Below the pieces are notes generated by a model. The model saw nothing but the letters and a program-made list of their open reading frames with translations. It did no database searches and was not told the DNA's origin. 64,000 nt of DNA from Candidatus Acidiferrum sp. (GTDB taxonomy: Bacteria > Acidobacteriota > Terriglobia > Acidiferrales > UBA7541): contig DATFSI010000009.1 of assembly GCA_035262705.1 (NCBI GenBank), forward strand, positions 3-64,002, written 5' to 3'. This document shows, in pieces, positions 12,482 to 36,759 of this stretch (positions are counted from its first letter, which is position 1; the number at the start of each line of letters is the position of its first letter). The position numbers and the translations under genes were made by a program.

Positions 12482-12819
12482 GCACAATCACCACACACGT
12501 TTTGGATGTTTCCATCGGGCGCCCGGCCGCCAATGTTCCGGTGCTGCTGGAAATGCAATCAGCCAACGGGGCATGGTCGGAGGCAGGCCACGGGGCGACC
12601 TACAGCGACGGCCGGCTGAAGGATTTAGCAGAGGGCAAAACGCTGAGCGCGGGGATCTATCGATTGACCTTTGACACCCGCTCCTACTTCGCTGGGCGAA
12701 ATATTGCCGGGCTCTATCCACAGGTGATGATCGTCTTCGAAGTGAAGGACTCGCAGGAGCACTACCACATTCCCCTGCTCCTGAGCCCCTTTGGGTATTC
12801 CACGTACCGTGGGAGTTGA
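12478..12819 (+). CDS. uraH: 5-hydroxyisourate hydrolase (transthyretin-like)
   Basis: TTHVLD and HYHIPLLLSPFGYSTYRGS signatures. Confidence 0.95.
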   Translation: MSTITTHVLDVSIGRPAANVPVLLEMQSANGAWSEAGHGATYSDGRLKDLAEGKTLSAGIYRLTFDTRSYFAGRNIAGLYPQVMIVFEVKDSQEHYHIPLLLSPFGYSTYRGS

Positions 12820-26135: not shown

Positions 26136-26164
26136 TTGACACGTTTCATCGTGGGCCGTAAACT
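26136..26164 (+). promoter_or_regulatory. Sigma70-type promoter upstream of first cobalamin riboswitch
   Basis: TTGACA-N17-TAAACT. Confidence 0.7.
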
Positions 26165-26182
26165 CGAAGGGAAATCCAACAG

Positions 26183-26275
26183 GCCAGGAAAGTGGGGAAG
26201 GCCGTGTAAATCGGCCGCGGTCCCGCCACTGTAATCGGCTTCAACGCCGAGAGCCAGGCTACCCTTCCTCGCCGT
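26183..26275 (+). ncRNA. Cobalamin riboswitch, short class II type
   Basis: GGGAAG-GCCGTGTAAATCGGC (T-loop stem)-CGCGGTCCCGCCACTGTAA-TCGGC..GCCGA-GAGCCAGGCTACC; directly upstream of btuFCD; ends approximate. Confidence 0.82.
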
Positions 26276-26318
26276 CGTGGTTGGGCTACTTCGCGAGAGA
26301 GTACGCCTCCCGTATGCG

Positions 26319-26346
26319 CCCGGCTTTTCGCCGGGTTTTTCATTTT
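26319..26346 (+). terminator. Intrinsic terminator of riboswitch expression platform
   Basis: CCCGGC-TTTTC-GCCGGG followed by TTTTTCATTTT, between aptamer and btuF. Confidence 0.7.
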
Positions 26347-26379
26347 CCATTCTCGCGGAATTCGCCACAGGGGAGATTC

Positions 26380-27456
26380 TTGCAACAAGGTCAGCCCAAA
26401 TTTGCGCATTACGCAAGGCTTCTCCTGTTCTTTGCGTTGGGTTGGACGGTGTTTCCGTTGCACGCACAATCGGCGGCGCCGCCAGCAACACCGCCGGCAA
26501 TGCGCGAGGTGGTGGACGAGTTCGGCCGCACAGTGCGCATTCCGCAGCTACCGCAGCGCATCGTTTCGCTGGCGCCCAGCCTGACGGAGACTCTCTACGC
26601 GCTGGGCGTGCAGGACCGCCTTGTGGGCGATACGGATTATTGCGATTATCCCGCCGACGCGCAAAAGAAAAAGAAGGTCGGCGGCGTGATTAATCCGAAT
26701 CTTGAGGAGATCGCCGCTCTGCATCCGGACTTGGTGCTGGTGACCAGGGAAGGCAACCGTGCGGACACGGTGCGCGCGCTGGATACGCTGGGTATCCCGA
26801 CGTATGCGACGCAGGCGCGGAATGTGAACGAAGTGCTGACGACCACGCAAAAGCTGGCGAATCTGCTGGGCGTGCCGGAAGCGGGAAGCTCCTTGACGGG
26901 CGACCTGCAAGCGCGGCTGGACGCTCTGCACGGGAAGCTGGATGTGATTCCTCCAACCCGTGCGCTTTTTATTGTGTGGACCGAGCCGCTGATATCCGTC
27001 GGCAAAGATACCTTTGTCGCCGACGCGATGCGGCTTGCCGACGCGACCAGCATCGTGGACGCCAAGCAGGACTGGCCGCAGATGAGCCTGGAGGAAATCG
27101 CAAAGCTGCAGCCGGAGTATCTGGTGTTTGCCGCCGGGCATTTTGAGGAGGGCACGCGCAATTTCGAAGCACTGGCGGACCGGCCCGGATGGCGTATTTT
27201 GGATGCGGTGCGCCAGCGGCGATTCGCGGTGGTCAGCGAGGCGGTGATTCGGCCCTCTCCGCGCATCGTTTCGGCCATCGAAGACCTTGCGCGCCAACTG
27301 CATCCCGCGGCGTTTCAGGAAACGCCCGCGCCGAATAGTCCGGGCGCTCCCGCTCCTCCTACGCCGCCCGGTGCAAAACCGCTGACAAGCACTCGCGCAG
27401 CCCGCATGGCCCTCAACACTCAAATTGAGATACAGGAGCTGGCATGCGCCCGCTGA
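26380..27456 (+). CDS. btuF: Cobalamin-binding periplasmic protein (start uncertain; TTG after GGGGAG)
   Basis: VVDEFGRTV..PQRIVSLAPSLTETLYALG..VGDTDYCDYP, NLEEIAALHPDLV, RPSPRI; downstream of a B12 riboswitch. Confidence 0.85.
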   Translation: MQQGQPKFAHYARLLLFFALGWTVFPLHAQSAAPPATPPAMREVVDEFGRTVRIPQLPQRIVSLAPSLTETLYALGVQDRLVGDTDYCDYPADAQKKKKVGGVINPNLEEIAALHPDLVLVTREGNRADTVRALDTLGIPTYATQARNVNEVLTTTQKLANLLGVPEAGSSLTGDLQARLDALHGKLDVIPPTRALFIVWTEPLISVGKDTFVADAMRLADATSIVDAKQDWPQMSLEEIAKLQPEYLVFAAGHFEEGTRNFEALADRPGWRILDAVRQRRFAVVSEAVIRPSPRIVSAIEDLARQLHPAAFQETPAPNSPGAPAPPTPPGAKPLTSTRAARMALNTQIEIQELACAR

Positions 27457-28484
27457 CTCTAGCGCGCCTTCTGATGCGCTGCGGCATTCTCGTGGCCATT
27501 CTTTTCGCCGTGGTTGTAATCGCCCTGAAGCTTGGCGCGGTGCAGGTTTCTCTCTATGGATTGGGGAAGGATTTGCTCGGCGTGCTGTTGCGCCGCAGCA
27601 ACACGCTATCGTCTGACTACGGCATGATTGTGCTGGACATCCGGTTGCCGCGGATATTGCTGGGCATCGTGGTGGGCGCATCGCTCTCCGTGGCGGGGGC
27701 AAGCTTTCAGGCGCTGCTGCGGAATCCGCTGGCGGATCCTTACGTCCTGGGCGTTTCGTCGGGAGCGGCGCTGGGCGCGATTGTCGCGCTGGTGATTGAA
27801 GGGCACATGAATCTGACTCCGGAACTCGCCGGGGTGATCACGCCGGTCGGCGCGTTCATCGGCGCGGCGCTAACCATCGCCGCGGTCTACGTACTCGGGC
27901 GGCGCGAGGGACAAATCGACAGCAACACGCTGCTGCTCGGAGGAATCATCACCACGTCGTTTCTCTCCGCGGTAATCATGTTCCTGATGACCACGCTGCC
28001 GAGCAATAATCTTCGCGGCACGGCCTTTTGGCTGATGGGTGACCTATCCACACCACAGCCGCGCAGCCTGCTGTACTTGCTTATATTGGGTTTCCTCGCG
28101 GCGGCGGGAGCGATTTACACCACGTCCTCGGACCTGAACCTCCTGCTCGCCGGCGAGAAGGAAGCGATGCACCTGGGCGTGGACGTGCCGCGGGTGCGCA
28201 TCGTGGTTTATCTGGCGGCTTCCATTCTTACAGGATTGGCGGTGGCCGCGAGCGGAGTAATCGGCTACGTGGGCTTACTGGTGCCGCACGTGATGCGCCT
28301 TATTTTTGGCTCGGATCATCGCATGCTGCTACCCGCCGCAGCGCTGGGCGGCGCGATCGCCCTGGTGATTGCGGACACGCTGGCCCGCACGGTGGCTTCG
28401 CCGACGGATCTGCCCGTCGGAGCGATGACCGCGATGGCCGGTGCGCCGCTGTTCATTTATCTGCTGCGCAGGAGGCTGGCATGA
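27444..28484 (+). CDS. btuC: FecCD/BtuC-family ABC permease
   Basis: DIRLPR, QALLRNPLADPYVLGVSSGA, A.HLGVD, IGYVGLLVPH, LPVG. Confidence 0.88.
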   Translation: MRPLTLARLLMRCGILVAILFAVVVIALKLGAVQVSLYGLGKDLLGVLLRRSNTLSSDYGMIVLDIRLPRILLGIVVGASLSVAGASFQALLRNPLADPYVLGVSSGAALGAIVALVIEGHMNLTPELAGVITPVGAFIGAALTIAAVYVLGRREGQIDSNTLLLGGIITTSFLSAVIMFLMTTLPSNNLRGTAFWLMGDLSTPQPRSLLYLLILGFLAAAGAIYTTSSDLNLLLAGEKEAMHLGVDVPRVRIVVYLAASILTGLAVAASGVIGYVGLLVPHVMRLIFGSDHRMLLPAAALGGAIALVIADTLARTVASPTDLPVGAMTAMAGAPLFIYLLRRRLA

Positions 28485-29326
28485 GTAGCGTGGCGCGTCC
28501 GCTTCCCGGCGAACCCTCGCGCACGAGTTCCGAGGTGCGCCTGAGCGTGGAGCAGGTAAGCTATGCGTATGCGGCCAATCCGGCGCAGGCGCCGCTGTTT
28601 ACTCTGGAAGCGTTGAGCTTTCAGGCGAAGCCGGGTGAGCTTGTTGCTATCCTCGGCCCCAACGCCAGCGGCAAATCCACACTGCTGCGATTGATTTCCG
28701 GGGAACTCGAAGCGCTTTCCGGGCGCATCTTTCTCAACGGTTTTGCGACGCACGATCTGCCGGTGAAGATGCGCGCGCAGCGCATCGCCATGGTGCAGCA
28801 GGAGAGCCGCCTGCTGTTTCCTTCGCGGGCATGGGAATTTGTGCTGCAGGGGCGGCATCCGTATGGCGGCGGGCTGCGCTTTGAATCCGAGGAAGATATC
28901 GCCATTGCCGGGAACGCGCTGGCGCAGGTCGGGGCCACGCATCTAGCGGACCGCTGGATGGACATGGTTTCCGGCGGCGAGAAGCAGCGGATTATTCTGG
29001 CGCGGGCGCTGGCGCAACAGCCGCTGTTGCTGCTGCTGGACGAGCCGACGCTGCATCTGGATATCGGTGCACAGGTGGACTTGCTGGAGTCGTTGCGCCG
29101 GCTGGCCGCAGAAAACCGCTATACCGTGGTGGTGGTGACGCACGAACTCAACCTGGCCGGGGAATATGCCGACCAGGTGGTGCTGATGCAGCGCGGCAAA
29201 TGCCTGCGCGTGGGGCCACCGGCAACGGTGCTGCAGCGGGAAATTCTGGAGCAGGTTTTTCAGGCGTCGCTTTCTGTGGAGATGACCGCTACGGGAAGGC
29301 CGCGCGTGACGCTTTTCAACAAATAG
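28481..29326 (+). CDS. btuD: BtuD/FepC-family ABC ATPase
   Basis: GPNASGKS, VSGGEKQR, LLLDEPTLHLD, VTHELNLA. Confidence 0.88.
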   Translation: MSSVARPLPGEPSRTSSEVRLSVEQVSYAYAANPAQAPLFTLEALSFQAKPGELVAILGPNASGKSTLLRLISGELEALSGRIFLNGFATHDLPVKMRAQRIAMVQQESRLLFPSRAWEFVLQGRHPYGGGLRFESEEDIAIAGNALAQVGATHLADRWMDMVSGGEKQRIILARALAQQPLLLLLDEPTLHLDIGAQVDLLESLRRLAAENRYTVVVVTHELNLAGEYADQVVLMQRGKCLRVGPPATVLQREILEQVFQASLSVEMTATGRPRVTLFNK

Positions 29327-29404
29327 AAGTTTTTCGCGTTCACCCCAACCCGGCGATTTTTTAATCGCTGATCAATGAAACCCGCAGCGGGCGCCGCCCC
29401 TCGA

Positions 29405-29605
29405 CAACAACCGCGGACTTCGTGCTCGGGAAGACGGTGAGAAGCCGTCGCCGCCGCGCGACTGTAAGGCGAATGTGCAGCTCGCATGTCACTGTGGCCG
29501 AACTTGGCCGCGGGAAGGCAGCGAGCGAACTCTTTGAGGCCAGCGCTGATAGTAAGCCAGCCGGGCTGAGGGTTCCTTTTCGCCAAGCCAGGAGACCGGC
29601 GAAGT
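29405..29605 (+). ncRNA. Cobalamin (AdoCbl, class I) riboswitch with extra insertion
   Basis: GGGAAG-ACGGTGAGAAGCCGT-CGCCGCCGCGCGACTGTAA...GTCACTG...GGGAAGGC...AAGCCAGGAGACC B12-box elements in order; upstream of btuB; ends approximate. Confidence 0.9.
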
Positions 29606-29676
29606 CTGCAGCCAGTGCCAGCGCCCCAGGTACCGGCCAACCTTCAGGCTCCCGCGCGTGAGGGAGCGGAGGAACC

Positions 29677-31896
29677 ATGAAAAACTTTTTTGCCGTCCTC
29701 TCCGTGACTTTCGCATTTTTTGCCTATTCCGCAAATTCCAAGGCTGTTCCGCAATCTTCGACTGATAACGCCCACTTGACCGGCACGCTGACCGATCCTT
29801 CCGGCGCAGCCGTCGCCGGAGCGCAAATCAGCGCGCAGGCCACCGGTTCGTCCGCACAGGTCAACGCAACTTCCGGCGCGGACGGTTCGTATTCGCTGAA
29901 CCTTCCGCCAGGGAGCTATCGTGTGCGTTTTGCGCGCACGTCGTTTGCCGCGCGCGAGATTAACGTGAGCCTGGCTGCCGGCGAATCCCGCGTGGTGAGC
30001 CTTCCCCTTGAACTCGAGCGACTATCCGAGAGCGTGGTGGTCACCCCGCAATCGCTTCCGGTTAGCGCGCAGCAGACCACAGTTCCTACCGACGTTATCT
30101 CCCGCGAGGTGATCGAGGACCGTCAGGCGGCTTCCCTGCCCGAGCTTTTGCAGTTCTCACCGGGCATCGCCATAGGCCGGACCGGACCGTTTGGCGGAAC
30201 CGCCTCAGTCTTCCTTAACGGCGGCAATTCGAACTTCACAAAGGTTCTTGTTGATGGTACGCCCATCAACCCACCGGGAAGTGCGGTGGATTTCTCCAGC
30301 GTTACCACCGAAAACATCGATAAAGTCGAAATCGTCCGCGGCCCCGAAAGCGCCATCTATGGCAGCGATGCCGTGGCCGGCGTCATCCAGCTGTTCACTC
30401 ACCAGGGTGAAACGCGGATTCCAGCTTTCGGCGCCTTTGCTGAAGGTGGCAACTTCGCTTCCGGCCGTGGGGGTGCGGACCTCAGCGGCCTTCTCGGCAA
30501 GTTCGATTATTCCGGCTCTGCCGCTTACTTCCACACGGACGGCCAAGGCCCGAACAACTACTTCGTGAACCGCACGCTCTCCGGGAATTTTGGCTACTCT
30601 TTTTCCGATACCAACCAACTGCACCTCTCGCTTCGTAACAACATGAGTGACGCCGGGATCCCCGGACAAACCGGACTTCCTCCCTCGCCTGGCGCAATGC
30701 CGGATCTCTTTACGGGTTACGTACAGCACATCTTTTCGGCCAATGCGCGATGGAACCTCACCAGCGGCCGCCACTGGCAGCATCAGCTGATGGGCACGGA
30801 GTCCTATACGCGGCAGCGGAGTTTTGCGAACCCGGGAGACGTCTTCCCCTTCAACACCATCCTGGAATTCAATCGGGCCGCGGCGAATGCGCGATCGAGC
30901 TACGTGTCGAGGAATTTCAGCGCCACGGCCGGCTACCAATACGAAGTGGAAAACGGAGGCATTACATTTGTGAGTCCCGGCCACTTGCGCCGCAACAATC
31001 AGGCCGGGTACCTCGACTTCCGCTATACGCCCCTTGCGCGCCTGACCCTCGATTTGGGAGTCCGCGCAGAAGCCAACGACAGCTTTGGCACGCGCGTGGT
31101 GCCCCGCATCGGCGGGTCGTATCTGCTGCACAACGGGAAGGGGTTTTTCGGCGATACACGCTACCGGGCTTTTTATGGACAAGGCATCAAGGAAGCGCGC
31201 TTCGATCAAACCTTTGGCACGGATCCTTGTTTCCCAGGAAATCCCGGCCTGAAACCGGAAGCCAGCAAAGGCTGGGCAACGGGCTTCGATCAGAAACTCG
31301 CCGCGGATCGGTGGAAGGTTTCCGCCGATTATTTCTACAGCCGCTTTTACGACATCGTCAGCTTCGCCGACTGCCAGGCCACCGGGCTCTGCCCAGTGCA
31401 AGTTGGTTGCCCGTTTGGCAACGGCACCTATTTCAACACCGACCTGGCGTTTGCGCGCGGCGTGAATTTCGTCTCCGAGTTTCGCTTCCGCAACTGGATT
31501 TTCGTCAATGGGAACTACACGTATGACGATACCCGCGTGGTCAAATCCCCCACGGTCGCGGATCCCGCGCTCATTCCGGGAAATCATTTGATACGACGCC
31601 CGGTAAATTCCGGTTCTTTGGGGTTGAACGTAGCGTATGCAAGGATCAACTGGAACTTCATCGGGTACTTTACCGGCGTGCGCACGGACAGCGATTTTTT
31701 GGGATTGGGGCTTACGAGCAATCCGGGCTATGCGCGTTTTGACATGGCCGCCAGCTACCACGTCACGCGCGGGGTTTTCTTCACCGGACGCGTCATCAAC
31801 CTCTTCGACAAACAGTATCAGGACGTGCTTGGGTTTCCCGAGCTGGGTCGCTACTACATGCTTGGACTGCGCTACGCATTCAGCGGGAGAGACTGA
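29677..31896 (+). CDS. btuB: TonB-dependent cobalamin receptor
   Basis: Signal peptide, plug motif IDKVEIVRGPESAIYGSDAVAGVI, C-terminal INLFDKQY..GRYY..GLRYAF; preceded by a B12 riboswitch. Confidence 0.88.
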   Translation: MKNFFAVLSVTFAFFAYSANSKAVPQSSTDNAHLTGTLTDPSGAAVAGAQISAQATGSSAQVNATSGADGSYSLNLPPGSYRVRFARTSFAAREINVSLAAGESRVVSLPLELERLSESVVVTPQSLPVSAQQTTVPTDVISREVIEDRQAASLPELLQFSPGIAIGRTGPFGGTASVFLNGGNSNFTKVLVDGTPINPPGSAVDFSSVTTENIDKVEIVRGPESAIYGSDAVAGVIQLFTHQGETRIPAFGAFAEGGNFASGRGGADLSGLLGKFDYSGSAAYFHTDGQGPNNYFVNRTLSGNFGYSFSDTNQLHLSLRNNMSDAGIPGQTGLPPSPGAMPDLFTGYVQHIFSANARWNLTSGRHWQHQLMGTESYTRQRSFANPGDVFPFNTILEFNRAAANARSSYVSRNFSATAGYQYEVENGGITFVSPGHLRRNNQAGYLDFRYTPLARLTLDLGVRAEANDSFGTRVVPRIGGSYLLHNGKGFFGDTRYRAFYGQGIKEARFDQTFGTDPCFPGNPGLKPEASKGWATGFDQKLAADRWKVSADYFYSRFYDIVSFADCQATGLCPVQVGCPFGNGTYFNTDLAFARGVNFVSEFRFRNWIFVNGNYTYDDTRVVKSPTVADPALIPGNHLIRRPVNSGSLGLNVAYARINWNFIGYFTGVRTDSDFLGLGLTSNPGYARFDMAASYHVTRGVFFTGRVINLFDKQYQDVLGFPELGRYYMLGLRYAFSGRD

Positions 31897-31900
31897 CGCC

Positions 31901-32605
31901 ATGGCGGCGCCGGAGCCGATTCTTTTTTGCTGGAGCGGCGGCAAGGACAGCGCGCTGGCCTTGCATTCCTTGTCGCGGCAAGGCGATGTGCGCGCCGCGG
32001 CTCTGCTCACGACGGTGACCGAGGGCTACGACCGCATCAGCATGCACGGCGTGCGCCGGGAACTGCTGCGACGGCAGGCGAAGTCGCTCCGCTTGCCGCT
32101 GCACGAGGTGTTCATCCCGCCGCAGTGCGTCAATTCCATTTACGAAGCCCGGATGGAAGAAGCGCTGCGGCACTATCTGGACCAGGGGATTCACCGGGTC
32201 GCGTTTGGAGATATTTTTCTGGAAGACTTGCGCGTTTACCGTGAAACAAATCTCGCGCGTCTCGACATGCAGGCGATTTTTCCTCTTTGGAAGCGCGATA
32301 CGAGCGAGCTGATCCGCGAATTCAACGTGTTCGGATTCCGTGCCGTTGCCACCTGCATTGACCCGAGGGTGCTTGATGCCGGCTTTGCCGGACGTGAACT
32401 CGATGAATCCTTTTTCGCAGATTTGCCTCCGGGCGTGGATCCCTGCGGGGAGAACGGCGAGTTTCACACTTTTGTTTTCGACGGGCCCATTTTCGCGCGC
32501 CCTGTTGAATTTACCGTTGGCGAGGTGGTCCAGCGGGATTCGTTTGTGTTCTGCGATTTGCTGCCGGACAAAATTCGAGAGGAGGCTAGCTCGACCCATG
32601 CTTAA
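31901..32605 (+). CDS. DUF71/COG2102 PP-loop ATPase (diphthine-ammonia ligase-like)
   Basis: WSGGKDS PP-loop, RISMHGV, FGDIFLEDLR.YRE, DPCGENGEFHTFVFDGPIF; start at MAAPEP. Confidence 0.88.
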   Translation: MAAPEPILFCWSGGKDSALALHSLSRQGDVRAAALLTTVTEGYDRISMHGVRRELLRRQAKSLRLPLHEVFIPPQCVNSIYEARMEEALRHYLDQGIHRVAFGDIFLEDLRVYRETNLARLDMQAIFPLWKRDTSELIREFNVFGFRAVATCIDPRVLDAGFAGRELDESFFADLPPGVDPCGENGEFHTFVFDGPIFARPVEFTVGEVVQRDSFVFCDLLPDKIREEASSTHA

Positions 32606-33158
32606 CGAGAATTCCCGTTCCCACGCTTATGCCCTTCGCGCGCTGCTCGCCGCTGTGATGATTGTTCTGGCCGCGGTTGCGCGAATTGCGCCGCATCCCT
32701 GGAATTTCACGCCGATCGGGGCCATGGCACTTTTTTCCGGGGCCATCTTCCGAGATCGCCGCATTGCGCTTTTGTTTCCGCTAACTGCGCTTTTCGCAGG
32801 CGACCTGTTTGTGGGCCTTTACCGCCTGATGCCGGTGATTTATGTGAGCTTTCTCGTGAACGTGCTCATCGGCCGATGGATGGCGGCGAATCGCAGCGTG
32901 GCGCGCGTCGGCGGCTCCGTGTTCCTTGGCGCGTTACAATTCTTTTTGGTGACGAACTTTGCGATGTGGCGCGCGTACGACACCTTTCCCCACACACTTG
33001 CCGGCCTTGGTACCTGCTATCTCACGGGCTTGCCGCTTTTTGGAGACACTCTGGCCGGAGACGCCTTCTACGCGGCACTTTTCTTTGGCACTTTTGCGCT
33101 TGCGGAACGTCAATGGCCCGCGCTGCGGGAACCCACGGCGGCTCACAGTGCGTCGTGA
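32598..33158 (+). CDS. DUF6580-like integral membrane protein (ECF S-component-like)
   Basis: RIAPHPWNFTPIGAMALFSGA, FFLVTNF..W, Y..GL.TCY..GLP.F, GDAFY; about six hydrophobic segments; overlaps upstream stop. Confidence 0.72.
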   Translation: MLNENSRSHAYALRALLAAVMIVLAAVARIAPHPWNFTPIGAMALFSGAIFRDRRIALLFPLTALFAGDLFVGLYRLMPVIYVSFLVNVLIGRWMAANRSVARVGGSVFLGALQFFLVTNFAMWRAYDTFPHTLAGLGTCYLTGLPLFGDTLAGDAFYAALFFGTFALAERQWPALREPTAAHSAS

Positions 33159-33628: not shown

Positions 33629-35110
33629 ATGACTAAATTCGCCACAGAGTCGGCCATGGACTCCGCACTACTCGCTAAGTACGAGCCGGTGATTGGGCTT
33701 GAAGTGCACGTGCAGCTGCTGACGAAGACAAAGATTTTTTGCGGCTGCTCGACACGATTTGGCGATCCGCCCAATTCGAACGTTTGCCCGGTGTGTCTGG
33801 GCCTGCCGGGGACGCTGCCGGTATTGAACAAGCGTGCCGTGGAAATGGCCATGCGAGCGGCGCTGGCGATTAATTGCACGGTTCACGAGCATTCGCGCTT
33901 CGCACGAAAAAACTATTTTTACCCGGACCTGCCTAAGGGCTACCAGATTTCGCAGTATGAATTGCCGCTCGCCACTGGGGGATGGATTGAGATTGAAGTG
34001 CGCGGCGAGCAGAAGCGCGTAGGCATTACGCGTCTGCACCTGGAAGAAGACGCGGGCAAGTCACTGCACGATGGTTTTCCTCACTCGGATGACAAGACCT
34101 ACGTTGACTTCAACCGCTGCGGCACGCCGCTGAGCGAAATCGTCTCCGAGCCGGACATGCGGACACCGGATGAGGCTTACGCATATTTGACGACGCTGCG
34201 GCAGATTCTGCTCTATGCCGGGGTGAGCGATTGCAACATGGAGGAAGGCTCGCTGCGCTGCGACGCCAACGTGAGTGTGCGGCCACGCGGGGCCAAGGAA
34301 TTCGGCACCAAGGTGGAAGTGAAGAACCTGAATTCGTTCCGGTATCTGGCCAAGGCCTTGGAATATGAAATCGAGCGGCACATTGCAATCATTGAGTCCG
34401 GCGGGCGTATTTCGCAGGAGACGCGGTTGTGGAATCAGGCGGCGAACCGCACCGATTCGATGCGGTCCAAGGAAAAGGCGCACGACTACCGCTATTTTCC
34501 GGAGCCGGACCTGTTGCCGGTGCATGTGGGCGCGGGGTGGCGGGAAGACGTGAGACTTTCGTTGCCCGAGTTGCCGAATGCCAAGCGGGCGCGGTTTGTG
34601 GCTTCCTATGGAATCACGGCCTACGACGCGGAGATTCTTACAGACACGCAGGCCCTGGCGGATTATTTTGAGGCTGCGGTGAAGGCAGGCGCGCCGGGGA
34701 AGGCCGCCGCGAACTGGATGCAGACGGAGCTACTGCGACGCCTGAACGATTCGGGCAAGGAGATCGGTGCCAGCTCGGTTTCGCCTGCGGCGCTCGGCGA
34801 GCTGGTGGTGTTTGTGGGCTCGGGCAAAATTACCGCGGCGATTGGCAAGAAAGTGTTTGCCACGATGTTTGAAACCGGACGTTCCGCCCGGGACATCGTC
34901 GCTGCCGAAGGCCTGGGGGCGCGGGTTGGCGAGGACGCCATCGAAAGGGCGGCACGCGCGGTCATCGAGAAAAATCCGGACAACGTAGCGAAGTTCAAAT
35001 CTGGCAACGAAGGCGTGTTCAAGTTTTTTGTCGGCCAGGTGATGAAGGCCACCAAAGGGCAGGCTAATCCGCACGCGGTGAACGATATCGTGCGGCGGTT
35101 GTTGTCCTAG
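33629..35110 (+). CDS. gatB: Asp-tRNA(Asn)/Glu-tRNA(Gln) amidotransferase subunit B (start 33629 or 33656)
   Basis: VIGLEVHVQL, CPVCLGLPG.LP, RKNYFYPDLPKGYQISQ, HLEEDAGK, EGSLRCDANVSVR, YRYFPEPDL. Confidence 0.97.
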   Translation: MTKFATESAMDSALLAKYEPVIGLEVHVQLLTKTKIFCGCSTRFGDPPNSNVCPVCLGLPGTLPVLNKRAVEMAMRAALAINCTVHEHSRFARKNYFYPDLPKGYQISQYELPLATGGWIEIEVRGEQKRVGITRLHLEEDAGKSLHDGFPHSDDKTYVDFNRCGTPLSEIVSEPDMRTPDEAYAYLTTLRQILLYAGVSDCNMEEGSLRCDANVSVRPRGAKEFGTKVEVKNLNSFRYLAKALEYEIERHIAIIESGGRISQETRLWNQAANRTDSMRSKEKAHDYRYFPEPDLLPVHVGAGWREDVRLSLPELPNAKRARFVASYGITAYDAEILTDTQALADYFEAAVKAGAPGKAAANWMQTELLRRLNDSGKEIGASSVSPAALGELVVFVGSGKITAAIGKKVFATMFETGRSARDIVAAEGLGARVGEDAIERAARAVIEKNPDNVAKFKSGNEGVFKFFVGQVMKATKGQANPHAVNDIVRRLLS

Positions 35111-35164
35111 GGCGTGGCAACTCGGCCCGCCTTAGGAGGCGGGCCCTACCTCAGGAGAGAGTTC

Positions 35165-35623
35165 ATGGTCAAAGTGGGCCAGAAGGCACCTGAATTTACA
35201 CTCGCTTCAGACGAAGGCAAGGAAATCTCGCTGAAGGATTTTGCGGGCCGGCGGGTGCTGCTCTTTTTCTTTCCGAAGGCGAACACGCCGGGTTGAACGA
35301 TTGAGGCGTCCGAGTTTCGCGACGCAAAGGCGAACTTCGACAAGCTGGGCGTGTCCATTCTGGGGGCCAGCGCGGACCCGATGAAGGCTCTAGAAAGTTT
35401 TAAGGCCAAGCAGAAGCTGAATTTTCCGCTGCTGAGTGATCCAACCCACAAAATGATTGAGGCTTACGGTGTGTGGCGTATGAAGAAGTTCATGGGACGC
35501 TCGTTCAAGGGCATTGTGCGCAGCAGTTTTCTGATTGGCGCCGACGGGAAACTCGAGGAGGTCTGGGACGAAGTGAAGGCCAAGGGGCATGCCGCCGAAG
35601 TCCTAACCAGGCTCGCAAAGTAA
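35165..35623 (+). CDS. bcp: BCP/PrxQ peroxiredoxin with in-frame TGA (35294-35296) at the peroxidatic residue; probable selenoprotein
   Basis: Track ORFs 35114-35296 and 35351-35623 are in one frame; joined they read FFFPKANTPG-TGA-TIEASEFRD..LSDP..EAYGVW..RSSFLI, matching PxxxTxxC; RBS AGGAG upstream. Confidence 0.85.
35306..35325 (+). promoter_or_regulatory. Candidate bacterial SECIS hairpin
   Basis: GCGTC-CGA-GTT-TCG-C-GACGC: 5-bp lower stem, bulged C, 3-bp upper stem, G-containing loop 18 nt after the TGA. Confidence 0.6.
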
Positions 35624-35748: not shown

Positions 35749-36759
35749 ATGCCGCAGGTCGTGCGCTTCCATCAACTGGGAGGCCCTGAGGTTTTACAGG
35801 TCGAAGAACTTCCTTTACAGGATCCGCAGGCGGGAGAAGTTCGCATAAAGGTGCAAGCCATCGGACTGAATCGCGCGGAAGCGATGTTCCGGTTAGGACA
35901 ATACCTGGAGCAGCCAGAATTCCCTTCCCGGCTGGGAATTGAAGCCGCGGGAATCGTAGACGCGGTCGGCGCCGGGGTTATGAATGTGAAGGCGGGCGAC
36001 AAAGTCAGCGTCGCCACCGGGCAATCGATTGCGGAATATGGTACCTACGGCGAATTCGCCGTGGTGCCCGCCATTTCCGCCGTTCCCTATCCTGCGAATT
36101 TGACGCCCGAAGAAGCGGCTTCGGTTTGGGTGCAATACCTGACGGCTTATTTCGCCTTCGTGGATATGGCAGGTCTAAAAACGGGGCAGTCGGTGTTGAT
36201 CACGGCGGCCACAGGCGGCGCGGGTTTGGGGGCCATCGAAATGGCCCGCATCCTTGGCGCGACTTCCATCGCCACAACGCGTTCCGCTGCGAAAAAAGAT
36301 GCGCTGTTAAAAGCCGGCGCGGATCACGTGATTGTCGGCAACGAGAATTTCGCTGACCGCGTGAAAGAGGTTATGGGCGGCAAGGGCGCTGAGGTCATTT
36401 TTGATCCCATCGCCGGCGACACACTTCCTATATTGGCCGAATCGGTTGCCTGGGGAGGCCACATTATTTTGTACGGAGCTTTGCAAGGGGCGCAGACGGC
36501 CTATCCGCTTTGGACGGCGTTTTTGCGCAATTTTACCCTGCAAACCTACATGGTCTACAATTTCACCGGCCTCGCAACTCTCGGACTTCGACGCAATGAA
36601 GAAGCGATGGCGCGCGCGGTGGCCTTCATCACCCAGCAACTCCGTGAGGGCCGATTGAAGCCCAGGATCGATAGGACTTTCCCACTCGCAAAAATCCGCG
36701 AAGCGCACGCTTACATGGAATCGAACCAGCAGTTCGGCAAGATTGTGGTGACTGTTTAG
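35749..36759 (+). CDS. MDR-family NAD(P)H:quinone oxidoreductase-like protein
   Basis: GLNRAE, RLGIEAAG, ITAATGGAGL, AHAYMESNQQFGKIVV; no catalytic zinc ligands seen. Confidence 0.88.
   Translation: MPQVVRFHQLGGPEVLQVEELPLQDPQAGEVRIKVQAIGLNRAEAMFRLGQYLEQPEFPSRLGIEAAGIVDAVGAGVMNVKAGDKVSVATGQSIAEYGTYGEFAVVPAISAVPYPANLTPEEAASVWVQYLTAYFAFVDMAGLKTGQSVLITAATGGAGLGAIEMARILGATSIATTRSAAKKDALLKAGADHVIVGNENFADRVKEVMGGKGAEVIFDPIAGDTLPILAESVAWGGHIILYGALQGAQTAYPLWTAFLRNFTLQTYMVYNFTGLATLGLRRNEEAMARAVAFITQQLREGRLKPRIDRTFPLAKIREAHAYMESNQQFGKIVVTV

Follow-up and report, generated by a model that had tools for sequence, protein, structure and literature searches.

A predicted selenocysteine-containing BCP peroxiredoxin without a resolving cysteine, split at an in-frame UGA in an acidobacterial genome

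Introduction

Selenocysteine (Sec) is decoded in bacteria when hairpin-bound SelB delivers Sec-tRNA(Sec) to a UGA codon. One hairpin of this kind, the SECIS of Escherichia coli fdhF, lies just 3' of the UGA within the coding sequence, has an apical GU and carries a single bulged pyrimidine. Among the bacterial selenoprotein families listed in surveys is "Peroxiredoxin (Prx), COG1225 (Bcp), TxxU" (PMC9312934; PMC13188914). Twelve Sec-Prx proteins and five Cys-to-Sec events were reported by Zhang et al. in 2006, together with three selenoprotein families, comprising four proteins, in the Acidobacteriota (PMC1794560). The Sec-Prx of Anaeromyxobacter dehalogenans_1 (FYPKANTSGUTQEASDFRDE) and that of Geobacter metallireducens (PGUTKEANGFRD) were both recorded without a resolving Cys (PMC1794560, supplementary file 4). 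Sec-containing BCPs lacking this residue have hence been in the literature since 2006, in agreement with the first-pass annotation of the present locus, which had described Sec-peroxiredoxins as known from selenoproteome surveys.

The locus considered here lies in a 64-kb window, this being the whole stretch of DNA analysed. With a probability of roughly 0.93, judged from sequence comparison, it is a real gene for a Sec-containing BCP that lacks a resolving Cys, and gene callers break it into two pieces. The same proposal had been made in the first-pass annotation, and it was backed by the alternation of Cys and TGA among relatives, by the presence of the TGA in independent read sets, by the conservation of the hairpin and by the selection acting downstream of the TGA.

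Gene and Protein Family

The coding sequence (35165-35623, + strand) is a single frame of 152 codons running from an ATG at 35165 to a TAA at 35621-35623, and on translation its sole internal stop was found to be the TGA at 35294-35296. A Shine-Dalgarno-like AGGAGAG, read directly from the sequence at 35153-35159 (+), lies 5 nt upstream of the ATG and so favours 35165 as the start codon. The ORF listing breaks this frame into 35114-35296 and 35351-35623. The read-through product, MVKVGQ...FFFPKANTPG(stop)TIEASEFRD...RLAK(stop), contains no Cys.

The family assignment was based on the translation, on Pfam and NCBIfam matches and on identities to homologues. When C was substituted for the internal stop, the protein scored 129.5 bits against Pfam PF00578 (AhpC-TSA; 8.8e-38, cut-off 26 bits) and 178.3 bits against NCBIfam NF006960 (thioredoxin-dependent thiol peroxidase; cut-off 140), the nearest solved chain being PDB 5enu (9e-38). 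Identity to full-length Cys-type homologues was 68-78%. When the protein was aligned with 17 full-length homologues, the internal stop fell on the nearly invariant peroxidatic Cys of PxxxTxxC, giving the active-site motif P37-K-A-N-T41-P-G-U44 (PxxxTxxU; 35273-35296, +) with the predicted Sec44 encoded by the UGA at 35294-35296 (+). P37, T41, P42, G43 and R119 (codon at 35519-35521, +) were invariant in this alignment, R119 being the active-site Arg that completes the Prx catalytic tetrad. Both the family score above cut-off and the presence of P37, T41, U44 and R119 place the protein in the BCP/PrxQ subfamily. The resolving Cys at +5 that marks the atypical 2-Cys type is missing: position 49, occupied by Cys in nearly all of the 17 aligned homologues, is Ser in the window protein (codon TCC, 35309-35311, +, within the stem of the putative SECIS). 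Given Ser49 and a product free of Cys, the protein was grouped with the 1-Cys-type members of the subfamily. Translation and alignment therefore upheld the initial description of one frame split by a lone TGA at the peroxidatic site, as well as that of a 152-residue product without Cys in which Ser replaces the usual CxxxxC partner.

Authenticity of the TGA and Selection on the Frame

As the window derives from a metagenome assembly, the TGA might be a sequencing or assembly error for a true TGC or TGT. Sequence near-identical to the window was found in 24 public soil runs. Contigs from four runs, belonging to four different soil metagenome studies, were free of variants at the TGA even though they differ nearby (e.g. 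the synonymous 35302 T>C, ATT>ATC), and a soil metatranscriptome contig spanning 35098-35446 keeps the TGA intact. An unchanged codon in independent DNA and RNA contigs effectively rules out such an error, whose probability is practically negligible; the check on read support proposed at the outset was thereby answered in favour of the TGA.

A second explanation is that a nonsense mutation from TGC or TGT to TGA killed an ordinary Cys-type BCP and left a pseudogene. The two codons differ by one base, the gene calls do consist of two fragments, and the C-terminus is aberrant in one related contig (L100). This explanation was weighed against the relatives of the gene. Metagenomes were scanned with the pattern F/Y-P-K/R-A-x-T-x-G-TGA-T-x-E-x-x-E/D-F-R-D, synonymous choices being left free, and the TGA was recovered at the peroxidatic column in at least 120 public contigs, with 117 distinct sequences among the matches listed. 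The frame continues for 104-137 codons past the TGA in every complete contig listed except for the aberrant C-terminus of L100, and the metagenomic TGA forms listed share from 39% to 87% protein identity with the window over the first 100 residues after the TGA. Genomes were scanned with one genome per species, and among the best 80 loci 70 carried the motif, with TGA in 38 and TGC or TGT in 32. These 80 loci appear to come from acidobacterial MAGs of Acidoferrales/Acidoferrum/Sulfotelmatobacter type, a few being labelled as other phyla. The residue at +5 was Ser in all 38 TGA-type relatives and Cys in all 32 Cys-type ones. Among the 142 distinct Sec forms listed, residue 49 was Ser in 125, Cys in 7, His in 5, Arg in 3 and Thr in 2, and 102 contained no Cys whatever.

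Selection was estimated by the Nei-Gojobori method on 145 TGA forms. Upstream of the TGA, pS was 0.69 and pN 0.26 (pN/pS 0.38), and downstream the corresponding values were 0.66 and 0.29 (0.44). The matching ratios on either side indicate that the downstream part is translated and selected as the upstream part is. Purifying selection that is equal across the TGA, an intact downstream frame in nearly all of at least 120 diverged contigs and in 38 species-level genomes, and synonymous sites that are frozen and covary only beside the TGA make a pseudogene extremely improbable. Random stops and frameshifts past the TGA, which would have pointed to inactivation, were not seen in the relatives.

A 13-kb contig of 43% GC from a compositionally unrelated organism (L080, PVBE012839811.1) also encodes a Sec-BCP. 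It has the same SECIS architecture with a compensatory GCA...GAT, so that the element occurs across very different genomes.

Putative SECIS Hairpin

The putative SECIS, GCGUCCGAGUUUCGCGACGC (35306-35325, +), is a hairpin of 8 bp defined by folding and comparative data. Its stems comprise 35306-35313 on one side and 35317-35319 plus 35321-35325 on the other, GUU (35314-35316) forms the apical loop, C35320 is bulged, and the element covers codons A48-S49-E50-F51-R52-D53-A54. It begins 10 nt past the A of the TGA and its loop G lies 18 nt past, reproducing the distances first noted. Stability of the hairpin was not above chance when compared with shuffled sequences (z = -0.43; 61 of 200 shuffles folded equally well), and no SECIS family matched it in an Rfam search at gathering or permissive thresholds. 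Because the stability of the lone sequence is about that expected by chance, the significance of the hairpin comes from comparative data only.

Across the 37 TGA-type genome loci analysed, the sequence of codons +4 to +10 is GCG TCC GAG TTT CGY GAC GCA, with near-zero synonymous variation except at the bulged Y, and the flanking codons (+1 to +3 and +11 to +15) show free variation. The matching codons of the 32 Cys-type orthologues are GCY/GCT/GCG, TGC/TGT, GAA, TTY, CGN, GAY and CTN, and the energies of the best folds in this region lie between -0.2 and -9.5 kcal/mol, compared with -10.3 kcal/mol for the TGA forms. Over the seven hairpin codons pS was 0.24, as against 0.66-0.69 in the flanks. 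When 47 distinct sequences were considered, 91% of cells paired in the proposed helix and 7-54% paired when the partners were slid. Covariation was observed between codons 49 and 52: Sec forms with CAC at codon 49 have CGT for Arg52 (7 loci), those with CGC have CGC (4 loci), those with TGC have CGC (3 loci) and those with ACC have CGG (2 loci). The second base of codon 49 thus pairs with the wobble base of Arg52 in all non-Ser variants, pair 8-18 being AU in 6, GC in 6, CG in 1 and unpaired in none. Additionally, a compensatory change from GCG...GAC to GCA...GAT was found in two sequences, one of them from the 43% GC organism. A UGA at the Cys column, a conserved 3' stem-loop with an apical G and a conserved downstream frame, three of the features expected of a selenoprotein gene, were found, and on this comparative footing the hairpin is the predicted SECIS of the gene.

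Residue 54 is Ala in the Sec forms and Leu in the Cys forms. This Ala looks imposed by the RNA, as the base of the stem is formed by pairing between the GC of its codon and that of the Ala48 codon. The possibility that Ser49 is likewise dictated by the RNA was rejected, a TGC at codon 49 fitting the hairpin in three natural Sec forms (L051, L068 and L090). Since a good hairpin is retained where Sec forms have TGC at +5, the RNA does not force the loss of the resolving Cys, and this loss is more likely to have been functional, as far as sequence comparison can tell. A group of Sec-BCPs with EACDFRDE, belonging to an Anaeromyxobacter-like clade (L053, L067, L073, L084 and L111), was observed to retain Cys at +5. 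The hairpin of this clade is distinct and lies farther downstream (GCGAYUUC-CGUGAY-GAARUCGC), and it shows a compensatory change from U-A to C-G.

Identity of the Inserted Residue and Sec Machinery

A third explanation accepts that the UGA is read through and holds that the residue inserted is not Sec, either through a reassigned code or through insertion of Cys, Trp or Gly by a suppressor or near-cognate tRNA, possibly in a condition-dependent way. Of the three stop codons, UGA is the one used most often as an ordinary stop in the window (19 of 41 long ORFs), and it also terminates 40 of the 142 distinct Sec-BCP genes listed. Reassignment of the genetic code was rejected on this stop-codon usage, and because UGA is an ordinary stop elsewhere, recoding at bcp is site-specific. 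No further recoding candidate was seen in the window: the sole other same-frame TGA junction, at 12817, is an ordinary gene boundary, and its candidacy as a second selenoprotein gene was dismissed. Insertion of another amino acid would also fail to explain why recoding invariably falls on the redox-active Cys column, with the conserved hairpin after it in every case. What speaks for it is that the Sec machinery of the window genome is inferred from related contigs.

The search for this machinery covered the window and 200 related loci, in which ARAGORN detected no tRNA and tblastn with E. coli queries detected no SelA, SelB or SelD; E. coli selC, used as a positive control, was detected by ARAGORN. 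The SelA of Solibacter usitatus (PMC1794560) then served as a query and returned Bryobacteraceae-type matches only, and SelA of the Terriglobales was reached from it through a representative search and cluster look-ups. A complete Sec toolkit was found on the Terriglobales-labelled soil contigs L216 (2588-15792), L217 and L218, as well as on L212-L215 and L220-L222. The sel island comprises an fdh operon, fdhE, fdhD, selA, a transglutaminase-like gene, selD and selB, with a tRNA-SeC(UCA) adjoining selB. The same selA-selD-selB-tRNA-SeC-fdh arrangement was present on a 4.43-Mb contig (L225, 8001-17046). FdhA of the sel island is split at a TGA within ETQARV-U-HGPTVSS, and its SECIS has an AGUU apex (G23-U24) similar to the GAGUUUC apex of bcp (G21-U22). 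In gene calls this FdhA appears as two separate proteins, one of 194 aa and one of 911 aa. In tetranucleotide composition the sel contigs correlate with the window at r 0.90-0.92, which is compatible with a relationship and too unspecific for assignment.

The Sec machinery is therefore present in related soil Terriglobales contigs, and the window genome presumably possesses it too. The first-pass annotation had attributed such machinery to the organism itself; the toolkit was found on Terriglobales-labelled contigs, no record of which comes from a genome seen to have the TGA-type BCP, and the window and the 200 loci contributed none of the components. Considering the complete toolkit on related soil contigs along with the stop-codon usage, insertion of a residue other than Sec was judged very unlikely, and Sec is the preferred reading of the UGA.

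Sec/Cys Alternation

The genomic slot btuB-(orf)-gatB-bcp-panC-panB was shared by 35 of 38 TGA forms and 31 of 32 Cys forms. With both types in the same slot, Sec and Cys alternate between orthologues, and the alignment check suggested earlier was settled by the 38 TGA and 32 TGC/TGT codons at this column among the best 80 loci. The nearest neighbour of a BCP was of the same type in 67 of 67 cases, the minimum Sec-Cys distance being 0.205. The adjacent GatB mixes the types, the nearest neighbour being of the other type in 9 of 67 cases, at distances down to 0.075. One such pair, L124 (Cys) and L132 (Sec), is 92.5% identical in GatB and 76% identical in BCP. A clean split of BCP beside an intermixed GatB suggests allele replacement at a fixed locus. 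Tentatively, and with rather less than an even chance of being correct, the Sec- and Cys-type BCPs of this acidobacterial order may be two old and strongly diverged allelic lineages that were swapped at gatB-bcp-panC by recombination, and not by repeated point mutation, the SECIS having reshaped the protein. Were this so, the Sec/Cys dimorphism could follow the availability of selenium in soil.

Among the Cys-type proteins of the database, the nearest (P0001, 79% identical) is encoded with a TGC followed by an intact SECIS sequence and is a recent revertant from Sec to Cys. The Cys-type BCP on contig L211 (1100-1140; Logan SRR24332681_4985) has TGC together with the whole SECIS sequence GCG TCC GAG TTT CGT GAC GCA and Ser at +5, and has reverted from Sec to Cys by one base.

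Genomic Neighbourhood

Two cobalamin riboswitches (Rfam RF00174) were observed upstream of the bcp locus, both on the + strand, at 26157-26284 (42 bits) and 29403-29618 (82 bits). A btuF/btuC/ATPase-like ABC transporter (26281-29326) follows the first, and a gene for a TonB-dependent B12 receptor (29677-31896) follows the second. An ORF of 272 aa at 32340-33158 (+) had no NCBIfam match, shares 47-72% identity with its counterparts in many relatives, and in many of them lies between the B12 receptor gene and gatB. A GC-rich 8-bp hairpin, GGCCCGCC-TTAGGA-GGCGGGCC (35124-35145, +), sits between the gatB stop (35108-35110) and the ribosome-binding site of bcp and is not followed by a T-run. The metatranscriptome contig begins upstream of it, at 35098, and differs from the window in its loop at 35133 and 35136. 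Between bcp and panC lies a gene for a PIG3-type NAD(P)H quinone oxidoreductase (35749-36759, +). In most related genomes panC directly follows bcp, and the PIG3-type gene looks like an insertion confined to a few lineages, judging from gene order.

Synteny of gatB-bcp-panC was also observed in L121, L122, L128, L132, L139, L156, L181, L192, L196 and L199. Several of these MAGs are labelled Verrucomicrobiia, Eisenbacteria, Baltobacteraceae, Eremiobacteraceae, Alphaproteobacteria, Methylomirabilota, Dormiibacterota or Limnocylindrales, and in the off-label contigs GatB, where detected, was 64-90% identical to that of the window. Such off-label contigs with acidobacterial synteny are probably mis-binned.

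Proposed Mechanism

In the proposed mechanism, the UGA at 35294-35296 would be decoded instead of terminating translation. The hairpin, which has an apical GU and a single bulged pyrimidine, would serve as a bacterial SECIS, a role suggested by the comparative evidence, and would deliver SelB-GTP-Sec-tRNA(Sec) to the translating ribosome, where Sec would be incorporated as residue 44. Since the SECIS lies inside codons A48-A54, RNA structure and protein sequence constrain one another, the Ala54 codon being expected to pair with that of Ala48 at the stem base. By analogy with the peroxiredoxin family, Sec44, aided by P37, T41 and R119, would reduce peroxide and be converted to a selenenic acid. 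As the protein is free of Cys, this selenenic acid would have to be reduced by an outside thiol, and a direct reduction by thioredoxin or a small thiol, as in the 1-Cys-type BCPs, is envisaged.

Significance

For annotation, the consequence is that standard gene callers break up or cut short bcp of the window and well over a hundred of its relatives. With the Sec-BCP called in pieces, a main peroxide-defence enzyme is absent from the annotation of roughly one in two species-level genomes of the group. The acidobacterial group with the Sec-BCP occurs in many soil metagenomes. The locus also offers a clean and large Sec/Cys orthologue pair at a fixed position, in which the overlap of the SECIS with the active-site helix can be read through covariation, and it may be useful for understanding why Sec forms lose the resolving Cys and how the supply of selenium shapes soil bacteria.

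Comparison with Known Systems

The published Sec-Prx proteins are the closest described systems. The window protein was 45% identical to that of Anaeromyxobacter dehalogenans_1 and 46% identical to that of Geobacter metallireducens, in both cases over the full length and with U aligned. Fold, subfamily and the PxxxTxxU site are the same, and the +5 position is likewise not Cys, being Ser in Anaeromyxobacter and Asn in Geobacter. Anaeromyxobacter-type metagenome relatives (L053 and L084) were caught by the same pattern scan. The published proteins belong to Deltaproteobacteria, whereas the window is from Acidobacteriota of Acidoferrales/Acidoferrum type, where roughly one in two of the group's species-level genomes has the Sec form (among the best 80 loci). 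The window SECIS also has a sequence of its own, unlike the different hairpin found farther downstream in the Anaeromyxobacter-like clade.

Cys-type BCP/PrxQ proteins (NF006960; 5enu; Xanthomonas campestris BCP 3gkk/5iiz) resemble the window protein in family, length, active-site Pro, Thr and Arg, and genomic slot. They differ in that the window protein has Sec in place of the peroxidatic Cys and no resolving Cys at +5, the lack of which makes an atypical 2-Cys cycle impossible. The biochemically characterised PrxU of Eubacterium acidaminophilum (NF040737) is similarly a peroxiredoxin with Sec at the peroxidatic position, but it represents another Prx subfamily; identity with PrxU was rejected, the window protein scoring 51.7 bits against the family cut-off of 270. 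Prx-SUH (NF045827) was also considered and rejected (22.7 bits, cut-off 298). In relation to the E. coli fdhF SECIS, the window element is likewise an intragenic hairpin just 3' of the UGA with an apical GU and a single bulged pyrimidine. The loop GU is at nucleotides 23-24 from the U of the UGA in fdhF and at 21-22 in the window, the bulge of the window hairpin is on the 3' side of the stem, and the two elements have no sequence similarity. The Sec-BCP of the window adds to a known family and reveals no new kind of system.
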